64,000 nt of DNA from Kordia sp. TARA_039_SRF (lineage in GTDB: Bacteria; Bacteroidota; Bacteroidia; Flavobacteriales; Flavobacteriaceae), in NCBI GenBank assembly GCA_006383075.2, contig SMNH02000006.1, positions 122,174 through 186,173 of the forward strand. Reading direction: 5' to 3'. The notes beneath the pieces were generated by a model. It saw nothing but the letters and a program-made list of their open reading frames with translations. It was not told the origin of the DNA and did not search any database. Below, one piece after another: positions 19,336 to 53,905 of the stretch (positions within the stretch are counted from its first letter, which is position 1; every line of letters begins with the position of its first letter). A program made the translations under genes and the position numbers.

Positions 19336-19741
19336 AAAAATCTCAATACTCATATCTCAATACTATCCTATTCCACAGCACGTCAGTTCGAGTATTTTCT
19401 GAAGAAAAAATGTATCGAGAACAGCTATGGTTTCCTAAAGTTTAAGAGTTTGCCTAATTCAAAATTCAGCATTTAATATTCAAAATTTAAAGTTTCAAAG
19501 CACTTCTCGATACAAATTTGCTTCATTTCGGCAAGCTCAATGAGCAGCAAATCCACTCGAAGTGACGCTTTGTTATATGAAGTTTAAGAGTTTATACGTT
19601 GAATAGTTTGGTTTTGAAAAAATCTCAATACTCACTACTAATATCTCAGTACTATTCCTAGTTCCACAGCACGTCACTTCGAGTATTTTTCAAAGAAAAA
19701 TATATCGAGAACAGCTATGATTTTCTAAAGTTTAAGAGTTT
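19336..19741. repeat. Composite REP-like cluster: two ~120-bp direct repeats flanking an inverted REP
   Basis: CGTCASTTCGAG..TATCGAGAA elements at 19381-19422 (+), 19503-19567 (-) and 19672-19712 (+), with shared CTCAATA and AAAGTTTAAGAGTTT flanks. Confidence 0.85.
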
Positions 19742-34362: not shown

Positions 34363-34441
34363 TTTGTTTGTTGTTAGCATTGAGGTTTTAGTATTGAGTA
34401 TTGAGACAAGTTTGATTTATACTTGGTGTTTTTAGAGAAAC

Positions 34442-37608: not shown

Positions 37609-37778
37609 TCATTGTTTTTTCAAAATAAATTCATAAACAAGTACAAAATTACTGTCAAACACATTAGCGCATTACAAAAATCTCAATACTCAATACTAAC
37701 ATCTCAAATCTACCAACAAAAACATACCAAATTAAACCTTCACAACGTTTTGTAAGTCATACAACAAACGAATTAACT

Positions 37779-48616: not shown

Positions 48617-48637
48617 AAAAACTAAAAATTGCTATAT

Positions 48638-49804
48638 ATGGAAAGCTTATACTTCAATGAAGAACACCATCTTTTTAGACAAAGTTTACGAGATTTTTTA
48701 AAGAAAGAAGTCGTTCCACATATTGAAAAGTGGGAAGAAACTGGAACCATTGAACGTTTTATTTGGGAAAAATTTGGTGAAATGGGCTATTTCGGATTAG
48801 CCTATCCTGAAGCATATGGCGGAATGGATTTAGACCTTTTCTATACAGTAATCCTTTTAGAAGAACTACAACGCATCAACTCTGGCGGATTTGCAGCAGC
48901 GATTTGGGCACATGCTTATCTTGCCATGACACATATCAATAAAGAAGGAAATCACGACATTAAACAACGCTATTTAGCGCCAAGTATTACAGGCGAAAAA
49001 ATTGGTTGTTTGTGTATTACGGAGCCTTTCGGCGGATCGGATGTTGCTGGAATGCGAACTACTGCTGTAAAACAAGGTGATAAATACATTATCAATGGCT
49101 CAAAAACGTTCATCACAAACGGTGTGTACAGTGATTACTTAGTCGTGGCAGCCAAAACAAATCCTGAATTAGGAAATAAAGGAATCAGCATTTTTGTGTT
49201 GGATAGAGACATGCCAGGAATATCAGCAACCAAGTTAGACAAATTAGGTTGGCGAGCTTCCGATACAGGCGAAATTGCGTTTGACAATGTAGAAGTTCCT
49301 GTAGAAAACTTAATGGGAGAAGAAAACATGGGATTCCCGTACATCATGCAGCATTTTGCTTTGGAGCGACTCATCATGGGGATTAATGCGCATGCACGTT
49401 CGGAATTTGCTATTGAATATGCTTTGCAATACATGTCAGAACGTGAAGCCTTTGGAAGAACAATTGATAAATTCCAAGCATTACGTCATACAATGGCAGA
49501 CTTGGCTACAGAAGTAGAAATCTGTAAAACCTTTAACTACGCCATTGCTTACAGACTCGACAAAAAAGAATACGTTGTAAAAGAAGCGACCATGTCTAAG
49601 CTACAATCTACCAAAGTAGCCGACAAAGTAATTTACCAATGTTTGCAAATGTTAGGTGGTTACGGATACATTGAAGAATACCCAATGGCGCGTTTGCTTC
49701 GCGACAGTCGCTTAGGACCTATAGGAGGCGGAACTTCTGAAATTCTCAGAGAAATCATCGCCAAAATGATTATTGACGGAAAGGATTATAAACCTGCAAC
49801 GTAG
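48638..49804 (+). CDS. Acyl-CoA dehydrogenase
   Basis: TEPFGGSD, NGSKTFITNG, KLGWRASDT, LGGYGY, IGGGTSEI; ATG 48638 preferred over TTG 48629. Confidence 0.96.
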   Translation: MESLYFNEEHHLFRQSLRDFLKKEVVPHIEKWEETGTIERFIWEKFGEMGYFGLAYPEAYGGMDLDLFYTVILLEELQRINSGGFAAAIWAHAYLAMTHINKEGNHDIKQRYLAPSITGEKIGCLCITEPFGGSDVAGMRTTAVKQGDKYIINGSKTFITNGVYSDYLVVAAKTNPELGNKGISIFVLDRDMPGISATKLDKLGWRASDTGEIAFDNVEVPVENLMGEENMGFPYIMQHFALERLIMGINAHARSEFAIEYALQYMSEREAFGRTIDKFQALRHTMADLATEVEICKTFNYAIAYRLDKKEYVVKEATMSKLQSTKVADKVIYQCLQMLGGYGYIEEYPMARLLRDSRLGPIGGGTSEILREIIAKMIIDGKDYKPAT

Positions 49805-50021
49805 TTTTTAGAAGTGAGATTTTAGTATTGAGTATTGAGATTTTTTGGCGAAAATTCCATTTTCATCGCCAAAATGATTATTGACGGGAAGGACTATAAG
49901 CCAGCAACATAGTTTGTAGAAGTGAGATTTTAGTATTGAGTATTGAGATTTTTTTGGCGAAAATTCCATTTTCATCGCCAAAATGATTATTGACGGGAAG
50001 GATTACAAGCCTGCAACGTAG
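49755..50021 (+). repeat. Tandem triplication of the acyl-CoA dehydrogenase 3' end (units of 108 and 109 bp)
   Basis: Copies start at 49755, 49863 and 49972; each encodes MIIDGKDYKPAT*. Confidence 0.95.
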
Positions 50022-50061
50022 TTTTTAGATTTTTTTTAAAGCTAAACTTCAAACATCAAAC

Positions 50062-50249
50062 CGTCACTTCGAGTAAATTTGCTGCTCATTGAGCTTGTCG
50101 AAATGCAGCAAATTTGTATCGAGAAGTACTATGAAACTTAAAATTTTGAATCCTTATAAACTTTAGCAATTCTTAGCTGTTCTCGATACAACGAACTACG
50201 TTCGCCACTCGAACTGGCGTGCTGTGAAACTTAGATGATTTTGAGATGT
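50062..50249. repeat. Inverted pair of family A palindromes; the second has the composite flanks seen at 19336-19741
   Basis: 50062-50126 (+) with a family F insert; 50179-50220 (-) flanked by GCTG and TGCTGTG. Confidence 0.85.
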
Positions 50250-50376
50250 TAGTACTGAGATTTTTTTATGTGACTTCCTAAGCTTGTATAAAAAATGTCA
50301 TTCAAATTTTATGACAAAAGTGAATAACAAACCATTGGTGCATTTTCAAATTATCAAATTGACACATTAAAAAAAC

Positions 50377-50401
50377 TGTCGCATCGAGCGCAGTTGAGAT
50401 G
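50377..50401 (+). repeat. Family D palindrome
   Basis: TGTCGCATCGAGCGCAGTTGAGATG. Confidence 0.8.
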
Positions 50402-50526
50402 CTTGCGAAACTAATAACTTTGTAAGAAGCTATCTCAATACTCAATACTAACATCTCAATACTTGATAAAAGGTTGTCACCCTACGTTTGTACGGTAAAA
50501 CCTTATAAATGTTAAACTTATCAACA

Positions 50527-50540
50527 CGAAAACGTTTTCG
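50527..50540. promoter_or_regulatory. Candidate LacI-family operator upstream of the amylase
   Basis: Perfect palindrome CGAAAACGTTTTCG with central CG, 83 nt before the ATG. Confidence 0.55.
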
Positions 50541-50623
50541 CTGATTTCATGATTACGTTCGGTAGGAATAAATGGTTAATTTAAAAAAGAACAATAACCT
50601 TTTTTAAACCAAAAAGTACAATT

Positions 50624-52666: not shown

Positions 52667-53554
52667 ATGCCCTTCACCGCTTTCATAGAATATCTACAAC
52701 TCGAAAAGAACTACTCGCAGCATACGGTAACAGCGTATGAAAACGACTTGCGTTCTTTTTCGGAATTCTGTGCGAAAGAATATGATGACGATGCTATTGT
52801 TACTATACATTATGTGCAAATTCGAAACTGGATTGTTTCTTTGGTAGAAAGCGGTTTGCAAAATGCGACTATCAATCGGAAAATATCATCGCTCAAAACC
52901 TATTATAAATTTCTTCTTAAAACAAAACAAATAGAGGTGAATCCTTTAGCAAAGCACAAAGCGTTAAAAACCTCTAAAAAAGTACAAGTGCCTTTCTCAG
53001 AAAGCGAAATGGAAAAGGTGTTGGCAGATATGACATTCACCAACGATTTTGAAGGCGTACGAGACAAAACTATTATAGAAATGCTATATGCTACAGGAAT
53101 GCGTAGAGCGGAATTAATCAATCTAAAGCAAACGGATATTGATTATGCGGCAAAAACCATTAGAATTTTAGGAAAAAGAAACAAAGAACGCATTGTTCCA
53201 CTCTTACAAAAGTTAGAAATACAATTGCAAAAATACCAATCATTCAGAAGTCAAGTAGATTCTCTTCAAAAAGAAGAGTTATTCATAACGGCAAAAGGAA
53301 ATAAAATCTATCCGAATCTTGTTTATCGTATAATAAATGACTATTTTAGTGTAGCATCAACAAAAGTAAAAAAGAGTCCGCATATATTAAGACACACCTT
53401 TGCGACTCACTTACTCAATCAAGGTGCAGACTTAAATGCTGTAAAAGAATTACTTGGTCACGCTAGCCTTGCTTCAACACAGGTGTATACACATAATAGT
53501 TTAGCAGAACTTAAAAATGTATACGCCAAAGCACACCCTAGAAACAAAAAGTAA
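52667..53554 (+). CDS. xerC: Tyrosine recombinase XerC-like
   Basis: SAM-like N-terminus, YATGMRRAEL, ILGKRNKER, SPHILRHTFATHLL, GHASLASTQVYTH; xerC versus xerD not resolvable by eye. Confidence 0.85.
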   Translation: MPFTAFIEYLQLEKNYSQHTVTAYENDLRSFSEFCAKEYDDDAIVTIHYVQIRNWIVSLVESGLQNATINRKISSLKTYYKFLLKTKQIEVNPLAKHKALKTSKKVQVPFSESEMEKVLADMTFTNDFEGVRDKTIIEMLYATGMRRAELINLKQTDIDYAAKTIRILGKRNKERIVPLLQKLEIQLQKYQSFRSQVDSLQKEELFITAKGNKIYPNLVYRIINDYFSVASTKVKKSPHILRHTFATHLLNQGADLNAVKELLGHASLASTQVYTHNSLAELKNVYAKAHPRNKK

Positions 53555-53605: not shown

Positions 53606-53905
53606 ATGAAAGTAAACATGCAGTCCGTAAACTTTACGGTAGATCGTAAGTTAGTAGATTTCATTCAAAGAAAGATGGATAAACTAGAAACGTATTATGA
53701 CAAAATCATAGATGCTGATATTTATTTAAAGGTAGCAAACACAAGTGCAAAAGAAAATAAAATTGCCGAAGTGAGAGTAAACATTCCTGGAGATGATATA
53801 ATAGTGAAAAAGCAATGCAGAACGTTTGAAGAGGCAACTGATGAAGCAACAAGTTCACTGCAAAGAGCCTTACTAAAACGAAAAGAAAAAGTACGAGCAC
53901 ATTGA
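53606..53905 (+). CDS. hpf: Ribosome hibernation promoting factor (short HPF/RaiA)
   Basis: 99 aa; MQSVNF..D.KL..FI, KKQCRTFEEATD. Confidence 0.9.
   Translation: MKVNMQSVNFTVDRKLVDFIQRKMDKLETYYDKIIDADIYLKVANTSAKENKIAEVRVNIPGDDIIVKKQCRTFEEATDEATSSLQRALLKRKEKVRAH

Follow-up and report, generated by a model that had tools for sequence, protein, structure and literature searches.

The 64,000 nucleotides of Kordia sp. TARA_039_SRF analyzed here (assembly GCA_006383075.2, contig SMNH02000006.1, positions 122,174 to 186,173 of the forward strand; hereafter the window, in whose own numbering positions are given) carry a gene for an acyl-CoA dehydrogenase whose last codons are repeated, together with the sequence that follows them, in a short tandem array. 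Tandem Repeats Finder (TRF) places this array at 49755-50029, as 2.5 units of 108/109 nt (period 108, 92% matches, score 494). The first unit starts inside the dehydrogenase gene, the last 50 nt of which are found again at 49863 and 49972, and the gene end and both extra copies all encode (IAK)MIIDGKDYKPAT followed by a stop codon. The two extra copies are called mini-open reading frames (mini-ORFs) 2 and 3 below, and arrays of such mini-ORFs are, in our view, probably real and previously undescribed mini-genes rather than duplication scars. The window array is composed of the following features.

48629..49804, + strand: acyl-CoA dehydrogenase gene, 391 aa, with N, M and C domains (Pfam Acyl-CoA_dh_N/M/1).
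49755..49804, + strand: copy 1, the true gene end, with the start-region box ATCATCGCCAAAATGATT, the Met380 codon (49766-49768), the tail codons and the stop TAG (direct reading, repeat search).
49805..49873, + strand: spacer 1, with the heptad element (~49813-49847), the inverted box TTTTGGCGAAAAT (49843-49856), a loop and the 5' part of copy 2 (inverted-repeat search).
49839..49879, + strand: hairpin 1, with the AUG of mini-ORF 2 in its 3' arm (minimum free energy, MFE, -11.1 kcal/mol, z -2.5; homologous stems covary across genera).
49874..49912, + strand: mini-ORF 2, MIIDGKDYKPAT and stop, with 5 silent differences from copy 1 (reading and alignment).
49913..49982, + strand: spacer 2, built like spacer 1 but for one substitution and one added T (2 differences over 73 aligned columns).
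49947..49988, + strand: hairpin 2, with the AUG of mini-ORF 3 in its 3' arm (MFE -12.7 kcal/mol, z -2.8).
49983..50021, + strand: mini-ORF 3, MIIDGKDYKPAT and stop, distinguished by 4 silent changes from copy 2 and by 3 from copy 1; next come TTTTTAGATTTTTTTT and the original downstream flank.

The coding letters of copy 1 are ATGATTATTGACGGAAAGGATTATAAACCTGCAACGTAG (49766-49804), while copy 2 ends in GGG AAG GAC TAT AAG CCA GCA ACA TAG (49874-49912) and copy 3 in GGG AAG GAT TAC AAG CCT GCA ACG TAG (49983-50021). A first-pass annotation of the window, made from its letters, had described three copies of the gene end with six variable sites, all third-position and silent, and direct reading returns exactly those six. 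Its remark that the spacers are nearly identical is equally borne out, the differences being one substitution (TTTTTAG/TTTGTAG) and one T (T6/T7). The terminal TTTTGGCGAAAAT of each spacer pairs with ATTTTCATCGCCAAAA of the next copy, and the fold-back that had been proposed on this ground proves real but modest, with the AUG inside the 3' arm at the energies listed above. In the window alone, six silent changes out of six have a probability of ~2e-4 to 3e-3 if the neutral silent fraction is 0.23-0.38.

Arrays of the same kind recur across the Flavobacteriaceae. They are present at 37 of the 160 distinct (de-duplicated) orthologous loci pooled from named and metagenome sets of this family (L-numbers denote such loci and G-numbers the genomes compared, G000 being that of the window), and they are known from at least eight genera. 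Among the named loci 20/80 have arrays (Kordia, Psychroserpens, Winogradskyella, Lacinutrix, Aquimarina, Planktosalinus, Oceanihabitans and Ichthyenterobacterium), and among the metagenome loci 11/80. Within Kordia, the dehydrogenase orthologue of 10 of the 19 species is followed by one or two extra gene-end copies with a period of 74-88 nt, and a back-translated pattern for KDYKPAT and its stop codon detected the tail in 100 of 401 family genomes and tandem arrays outside Kordia with up to 8-9 copies (G166, G035). Counted with the gene end, the 37 arrays comprise two copies at 18 loci, three at nine, four at eight, and eight and nine at one locus each, in units of uniform size (83-109 nt, and 83-90 nt in many genera). 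The arrays accompany the dehydrogenase gene and not its neighbors, and tails peculiar to a lineage (KPAVKE, KPAAK, DNK, DQK, DEK) are mirrored in that lineage's own extra copies.

This recurrence also bears on whether the window array could be an assembly artefact, that is, strain variants of a one- or two-copy locus joined into one, which the first-pass annotation had itself named as a way in which its reading might fall. The assembly is a 27-contig draft with 3.3% contamination, another of its loci has a gap-flanking duplication artefact, and the metagenome-assembled genome at L015 has an N run inside its array. Against this, the spacer-to-copy junction is proof of at least one true duplication, the units each have their own unique linked variants, complete isolate genomes such as that of K. 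algicida OT-1 also hold arrays, and two related but independent Aquimarina assemblies have identical copy-specific silent variants at equal array positions, and we find the artefact explanation hardly credible. A genome-wide TRF scan of G000 for other duplicated gene ends, a check that the first-pass annotation had proposed, found no further gene-end array; its two candidates are an N-gap artefact, in which a 127-nt exact duplication flanks an N run in a lipoprotein-like gene (contig C2:196999-197246; scaffolding or gap closure), and an intergenic palindromic tandem of 2.5 118-nt units with the palindrome GTCATTCCTGCGCAGGCAGGAATC, downstream of a GIY-YIG-like gene (contig C10:45796-46087). Strain-level relatives closer than 94% amino-acid identity were not found in metagenomes, and variant-by-variant matching of the copies to real alleles is not meaningful for that reason, chance matches being expected with only ~7 two-state silent sites.

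One line of evidence for mini-genes is how the copies have diverged. A first set of extra copies contained 43 silent and 6 replacement variant codons (P = 2e-21 for a neutral silent fraction of 0.23). When each extra copy was compared with its predecessor over all 37 arrays, the count was 123 silent to 35 replacement codons, P = 2e-24 against a conservative null of 0.38 in which one copy is constrained and the other neutral, and the pooled family excess of silent changes has P below 1e-20. The random, non-synonymous divergence in other arrays that would have told against the first-pass claim is thus not what is seen. Silent and replacement codons stand at 46:3 in internal copies and 77:32 in terminal ones; the ATG is retained in 71 and the stop in 72 of the 75 extra copies; and adjacent units diverge by 14.4% at third positions, by 3.3% in spacers and by 1.9% at first and second positions. 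Judged by these comparisons, the amino-acid sequence of the extra copies is under purifying selection, with start and stop retained, a pattern expected of a functional small-protein gene. Conservation of the Met codon was also considered as a sign of start use, and was rejected: Met is present at the start position of 36/37 array-bearing and 104/123 array-less loci, a contrast too weak to be used among loci that are not phylogenetically independent.

The window copies differ from one another at 27-45% of third positions, and whole orthologous dehydrogenase genes differ at 26% of them from K. periserrulae (35% at fourfold sites) and at 32-39% from other Kordia. Since the divergence between copies equals that between the orthologues of Kordia species, the copies are old paralogues that have nonetheless stayed peptide-perfect. 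In K. periserrulae a single copy is followed directly by the heptad element and then by the flank found 3' of copy 3 in the window, a layout that, as far as the sequence tells, is the expected outcome of a deletion between AGATTTTTT repeats; from this it follows that the heptad-bearing array is older than the K. periserrulae split, the sister species having lost it since. In G035 the gene itself now ends in KPST and seven extra copies retain KPAT, and its terminal copy, which is unlike every other copy in its own genome, differs from that of a sister species by 4 silent and 0 replacement changes, with the third positions of the gene 42% diverged.

How spacers can be nearly identical between copies of such age was at first sight puzzling. 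The window spacer has at its middle a dispersed intergenic repeat of heptad type (AGTGAGATTTTAGTATTGAGTATTGAGAT and a run of T), and the remainder is the inverted box and a short loop. The repeat has 6 matches in the window against 0 expected, and 46 BLAST matches outside the array, or 76 loose ones, in the 4.59-Mb genome; it is found in 19/19 Kordia genomes, and only at the dehydrogenase locus are the heptad element and the inverted box combined with coding sequence. At the dehydrogenase stop, the element shows 2/28 differences between the window species and K. periserrulae, against 26-35% at silent sites, and the hairpin part of the window spacer hardly differs from its counterpart in more distant Kordia species. 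The puzzle is resolved because heptad element and hairpin are both conserved, which leaves the silent codon positions as the sole free sites in the unit. The repeat itself reads TTAGTATTGAGTATTGAGAT followed by a T run, lies in the window at 19622-19650(-), 34379-34407(+), 37680-37708(-), 49813-49841(+), 49921-49949(+) and 50432-50460(-), and usually stands directly past gene ends, adjoining palindromes that resemble repetitive extragenic palindromic (REP) elements. REP-like palindromes (GTCACTTCGAGT...TATCGAGAAGTAC; CTCGATACAACGAACTACGTTCGCCACTCGAA) are dense in the 600-nt spacer 5' of the alpha-amylase gene (50040-50620), which also holds an inverted heptad copy at 50432-50476.

An untranslated duplication scar might be kept codon-perfect in another way, through conversion from the gene end together with the import of foreign gene-end alleles. 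Gene conversion does take place here: the extra copy of L154 equals its own gene end where the close relative L147 keeps four silent differences (conversion from copy 1 to copy 2), and the copies of the K. algicida group track their own gene end. The genomes are also mosaic. L113 and L102 (Aquimarina) have a breakpoint between copy 1 and copy 2, at ~2640-2690, with ~90% identity upstream and in the gene and 97-100% from copy 2 through 1.4 kb downstream; the Kordia loci are likewise mosaics of blocks of 80-90% and 96-99% identity. Some of the differences between copy 1 and copy 2 may accordingly be imported alleles, and of the earlier suggestion that the array records the capture of allelic gene ends this much survives, that recombination between lineages can break inside an array, whereas the hairpin-guided integration that it invoked is unsupported. 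Patchy presence and decaying terminal copies would also suit a scar. Conversion-only models, however, predict a per-site replacement-to-silent ratio of ~0.5, and the observed values are ~0.13 overall and ~0.03 for internal copies; copies 2-4, which lie inside the 97-100% identical block, still differ silently only; the covarying, sense-biased hairpin and the conservation of the spacers are left unexplained; and tandem repeats that are unselected and inherently unstable should not last to 27-45% silent divergence. The simpler candidate of a neutral tandem duplication scar fares no better, given divergence that is codon-periodic in arrays of so many genera. Nor can a backup copy exposed by conversion be the source of the constraint, since conversion erases silent and replacement differences at one rate and the ratio would again be ~0.5. 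We consider a scar maintained by conversion and import unlikely, though it is the main rival to the mini-gene reading.

The second line of evidence for mini-genes is a hairpin over the start codon. The region round the Met codon recurs in inverted orientation, over ~15-24 nt, in every spacer, and single-copy species lack such a box. All junctions are predicted to fold (-11 to -30 kcal/mol) in such a way that the 3' arm takes up the start codon, which is fully paired in 38/52 MFE structures. Among 17 stem pairs aligned over 13 junctions, one from each of 13 arrays, 8 change on both sides, a covariation score that 0/500 shuffles match, and 77% of cells pair, a share that drops to 43-52% if the partner is slid. 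Covariation extends to the wobble base of the Ala codon (GCC/GCA/GCT) and the base opposite it; the pairing AUGGUG/CACCAU of one genus is AUGAUU/AAUCAU in Kordia; and in G289 the Met codon has become AUC and its partner GAU. The sense fold is the stabler one in 26/29 arrays (-15.6 vs -11.7 kcal/mol, P = 4e-6 over 52 distinct junctions), and 12% of the hairpin pairs are G-U. This sense-strand bias and the G-U pairs indicate an RNA structure in the enzyme transcript; a DNA cruciform is disfavored by the same asymmetry, although the two hairpins of the window do not share it. In 47/51 junctions the stem starts 0-10 nt past the preceding stop, typically 3-7 nt. At L042, the locus of G289, the enzyme has Ile for Met at the start position and the extra copies share the change; an in-frame ATG within the hairpin loop would give a 19-residue product there, MVFPFAKIIIDKKDYKPAT. 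G166 and G010 too have in-frame loop ATGs, and the product in G166 would be MLKEIIAKMTLDGKDYKPATK.

Such a structure could have a purpose of its own as a 3'-untranslated region (3' UTR) or intercistronic element, for example as a barrier to 3' exonucleases, an RNase III site or a cistron spacer, with no need for a peptide. The strong covariation and sense-strand bias would be expected of it, as would the near-perfect 24-nt palindromes of G035 (-30 kcal/mol), spacers that are better conserved than silent sites, and the position of the array between two close same-strand genes in about half of the loci. Yet the stem takes only ~15-25 nt of each copy, and the other ~30 nt (codons 4-12 and the stop) are unpaired and codon-periodic all the same; because these unpaired codons are conserved with free third positions, constraint at the RNA level is disfavored, and the lack of an inverted box in single-copy species points the same way. 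An RNA element alone is in our judgment improbable. Rfam gave sub-threshold chance matches only, to eukaryotic miRNA and snoRNA models. The hairpins have no U tract on their 3' side as an intrinsic terminator would, and a simple scan found no such terminator on the + strand; in the Kordia relatives a conserved terminator (GATCACT...AGTGATCTTTTTTT) stands 3' of the array, ~150-300 nt downstream of the dehydrogenase gene in L016, L019-L027 and other Kordia loci. After that terminator, upstream of the alpha-amylase gene, follow the conserved palindromes TTACGGTAAAACCGTA and AACACGAAAACGTTTTCG, which probably serve a sugar-responsive regulator as operator.

The array neighbors a gene for a ComEA-like protein, one for a Na/Ala symporter, and one for either an alpha-amylase or a CarboxypepD_reg-like protein. 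The first-pass annotation had taken the ComEA-like gene as a hint that gene ends were captured from relatives by a hairpin-guided integration process; that link dissolves, as the gene lies upstream in 128/128 loci whether an array is present or not. Capture of allelic gene ends is also at odds with the lack of any element between copies, the absence of another array and the scarcity of replacement changes. A related possibility is that the array is the remnant of repeated integrations by a mobile element or by site-specific integration of the icd/e14 type, in which an element entering the 3' end of the gene would supply a gene end of its own and push the old one aside. The icd/icdC pair is marked by silent-only differences of this kind between the working gene end and the displaced one, which the window array resembles in this respect, and the last copy is the most diverged in long arrays. 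But no integrase or element remnant lies between the copies, whose spacers of 45-70 nt consist of hairpin and linker; the unit size is uniform across many genera; the genome has no second gene-end array; the hairpin behaves as a sense-strand RNA structure; and the nearby tyrosine recombinase, at 52667-53554, is 2.6 kb away, all of which makes integration very improbable. This 295-aa XerC/D-type protein is followed by a 99-aa ORF (53606-53905) and by EF-Tu (Pfam), presumably a housekeeping-type xerD/hpf/tuf neighborhood, and no link between it and the array was found.

Several established classes were tried and rejected. A leader or regulator for the downstream gene does not fit, array frequency being equal whatever that gene is (18/76 where it is CarboxypepD_reg-like, 18/82 where it is another). 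Read-through or frameshift extension of the enzyme is excluded by copy offsets (74-109 nt) that fall in all three frames and by intervening stops. A precursor array for ribosomally synthesized and post-translationally modified peptides should have adjacent peptide-modifying enzymes and a leader/core layout, neither of which is present, and the downstream neighbor varies while the arrays persist. A diversity-generating retroelement is contradicted by differences (A/G, T/C, T/A) at third positions only and by the lack of a reverse transcriptase among the neighbors, a CRISPR array by spacers that are repeated rather than unique and by the lack of cas genes among the neighbors, and capture of the integron or IMEX type by the absence of its defining features. 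At one Aquimarina locus the downstream gene (L113:3050-3890) codes for a lipoprotein that has a domain of the thiol-activated cytolysin family (Pfam PF01289, E = 2e-27) and is unrelated to the array.

What the mini-ORFs would encode is the tail of the enzyme. The canonical fold of the dehydrogenase ends at about residue 380-381 (an alignment to PDB 2pg0 stops at 380), and in the AlphaFold2 model the last helix spans 370-381 and residues 382-391 form a low-confidence coil (pLDDT ~32). Within this tail Y387 does not vary, and conservation reaches at least 90% at K388, P389 and A390, the profile of a short docking motif on a conserved flexible segment. The consensus of the extra copies, M-I/V-I-D-x-K-D/E-Y-K-P-A-T, corresponds to the last turn of the final helix plus the ~10-residue tail.

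From these observations we propose that the arrays are hairpin-gated, translationally coupled mini-ORFs that would make free copies of the disordered tail motif of the enzyme, a reading to which we give about an even chance. Co-transcribed with the dehydrogenase, the mini-ORFs would sit in the 3' untranslated part of its mRNA as stand-alone 12-codon ORFs with their own stops, and the inverted box of the spacer would fold the RNA so that the AUG and the first two or three codons lie in the 3' arm. Initiation in Bacteroidota, as described in one study, involves no Shine-Dalgarno pairing and is modulated by mRNA structure and by A residues lying upstream (PMC6847099), and because it is structure-sensitive in this way the hairpin should silence the mini-ORF. 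With the 5' arm starting 3-7 nt past the stop in most arrays, a ribosome terminating on the enzyme or on a preceding mini-ORF would melt the hairpin and pass translation onward, much as rpmI-rplT are coupled by RNA unfolding at +52 nt (PMC12548453). Translation would then be relayed from the enzyme to mini-ORF 2, from there to mini-ORF 3 and so on, over a stop-to-start spacing of ~45-50 nt, and the peptide would be made in step with the enzyme, in n copies per enzyme chain. Being identical to a conserved motif of a disordered tail, the peptide would most likely act as a soluble mimic or competitor of the docking motif. The earlier suggestion of translated micropeptides under purifying selection with hairpin-controlled initiation is supported in part and indirectly: the silent bias in 37 arrays, the retained ATG and stop and the covarying sense hairpin support selection on the extra copies and a hairpin over the start, and translation of the copies is predicted. 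Extended to the whole family, the proposal would define a new class of gene in the Flavobacteriaceae, tandem hairpin-gated mini-ORFs derived from the 3' end of an enzyme gene and relayed from its stop, with copy number (1-8) setting the ratio of tail mimic to enzyme; this wider claim we put forward tentatively, as somewhat less than an even bet.

Several points weigh against tail-mimic mini-ORFs. Both window junctions are outliers in which the stem begins 40 nt past the stop, so that the coupling geometry is missing locally; the dispersed heptad repeat inserted between stop and hairpin accounts for this distance. The window hairpins moreover fold equally well sense and antisense and are among the weakest of all arrays, and with an insertion of 40 nt in place of ~5 and such weak hairpins, gating and coupling are probably looser in the window array. 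Stable pairing over the AUG could just as well be a sign that no translation of the ORFs ever occurs, and for a cytosolic peptide of 12 residues neither partner nor precedent is known here. Gene conversion, as at L154, and recombination between lineages inside the array add silent differences without selection. A minority of terminal copies decay, all three changes in L148 being replacements and L145 having an internal stop, although neutral decay of this kind is, on its sequence, quite different from what the constrained copies show. The copies of the K. algicida subgroup are shorter and have weak hairpins, two of the three lack the ATG, and they look like relics. Finally, arrays are distributed very patchily, a gene tree of 157 leaves requiring at least 23 state changes, and the nearest relative, K. 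periserrulae, has lost its array, from which it follows that any function of the array is dispensable and the feature often lost; repeated gain of arrays is also possible.

The same evidence of constraint would also be expected if the mini-ORFs were translated and their peptide acted in cis, as a regulatory nascent chain that influences termination or pausing and so tunes the fate of the mRNA or the downstream gene. The ORFs are very short, like known arrest leaders, and a hairpin stands immediately 3' of each stop. Arrest peptides, however, rely on their last residues, and the stop-proximal residues vary here by lineage (T, TK, VKE, AAK), while arrays occur regardless of the identity of the downstream gene; a peptide acting in cis is for us a slim prospect.

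If the mini-ORFs are translated as proposed, the arrays would represent the birth of small-protein genes by partial tandem duplication across a stop codon, with the new gene wired to its parent through a hairpin that the terminating ribosome opens and with a dosage that can be set through copy number. They would bring a 12-residue member to the very few functional bacterial micropeptides known and offer a handle on the binding partner of the conserved flexible tail of a widespread dehydrogenase. For annotation, 12-codon ORFs are invisible to gene callers, and arrays of them are routinely dismissed as repeats or collapsed in assemblies; neither this arrangement nor the peptide strings were found in the literature searched. 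Even without a peptide, the locus combines a conserved, covarying RNA structure with unusual concerted evolution at the end of a housekeeping gene, and the data amount to a quantitative argument that simple conversion models cannot hold a spare gene end codon-perfect.

Parts of this arrangement have parallels in known systems. In rpmI-rplT of E. coli, in the coat-lysis pair of MS2 and in genes VII-IX of phage f1, a hairpin likewise lies over the downstream start with the upstream stop at or before its 5' arm, and the +52 nt of rpmI-rplT is similar to the ~45-50 nt between stop and start in the arrays (PMC12548453). Unlike these systems of coupling by RNA unfolding, the downstream ORFs here are 12-codon copies of the end of the upstream gene, chained up to eight times, and coupling is suggested by the geometry, which the 40-nt insertion loosens in the window. 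The icd/icdC pair of E. coli (prophage e14, phage 21) also has a spare 3' end downstream with mainly silent differences, but there an integrase-bearing prophage separates the copies in a one-off relic, whereas the present arrays consist of tandem units of 83-109 nt in 2-9 copies, occur family-wide and have a conserved RNA hairpin and no element. Neutral tandem duplications across a stop, produced by slippage or unequal crossover, similarly give head-to-tail repeats of the last codons and the downstream sequence, yet such scars predict neither codon-periodic divergence nor a covarying hairpin, both of which are seen here, where 37 independent arrays make a test possible. Tiny ORFs whose translation interacts with nearby hairpins are known from trpL, hisL, lambda bar and the axe-txe minigene; these lie upstream of the genes they regulate and only a few of their codons matter, while the mini-ORFs lie downstream and the whole peptide is conserved as the enzyme tail. 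Like the bacterial small proteins SgrT, MgtS and AcrZ and the microProteins by which plants and animals imitate an interaction domain, finally, the mini-ORFs would yield a very short product proposed to bind the partner of a larger protein, but those are single genes positionally unrelated to their target, whereas here the predicted function would belong to a tandem partial duplicate in the target's own 3' UTR.

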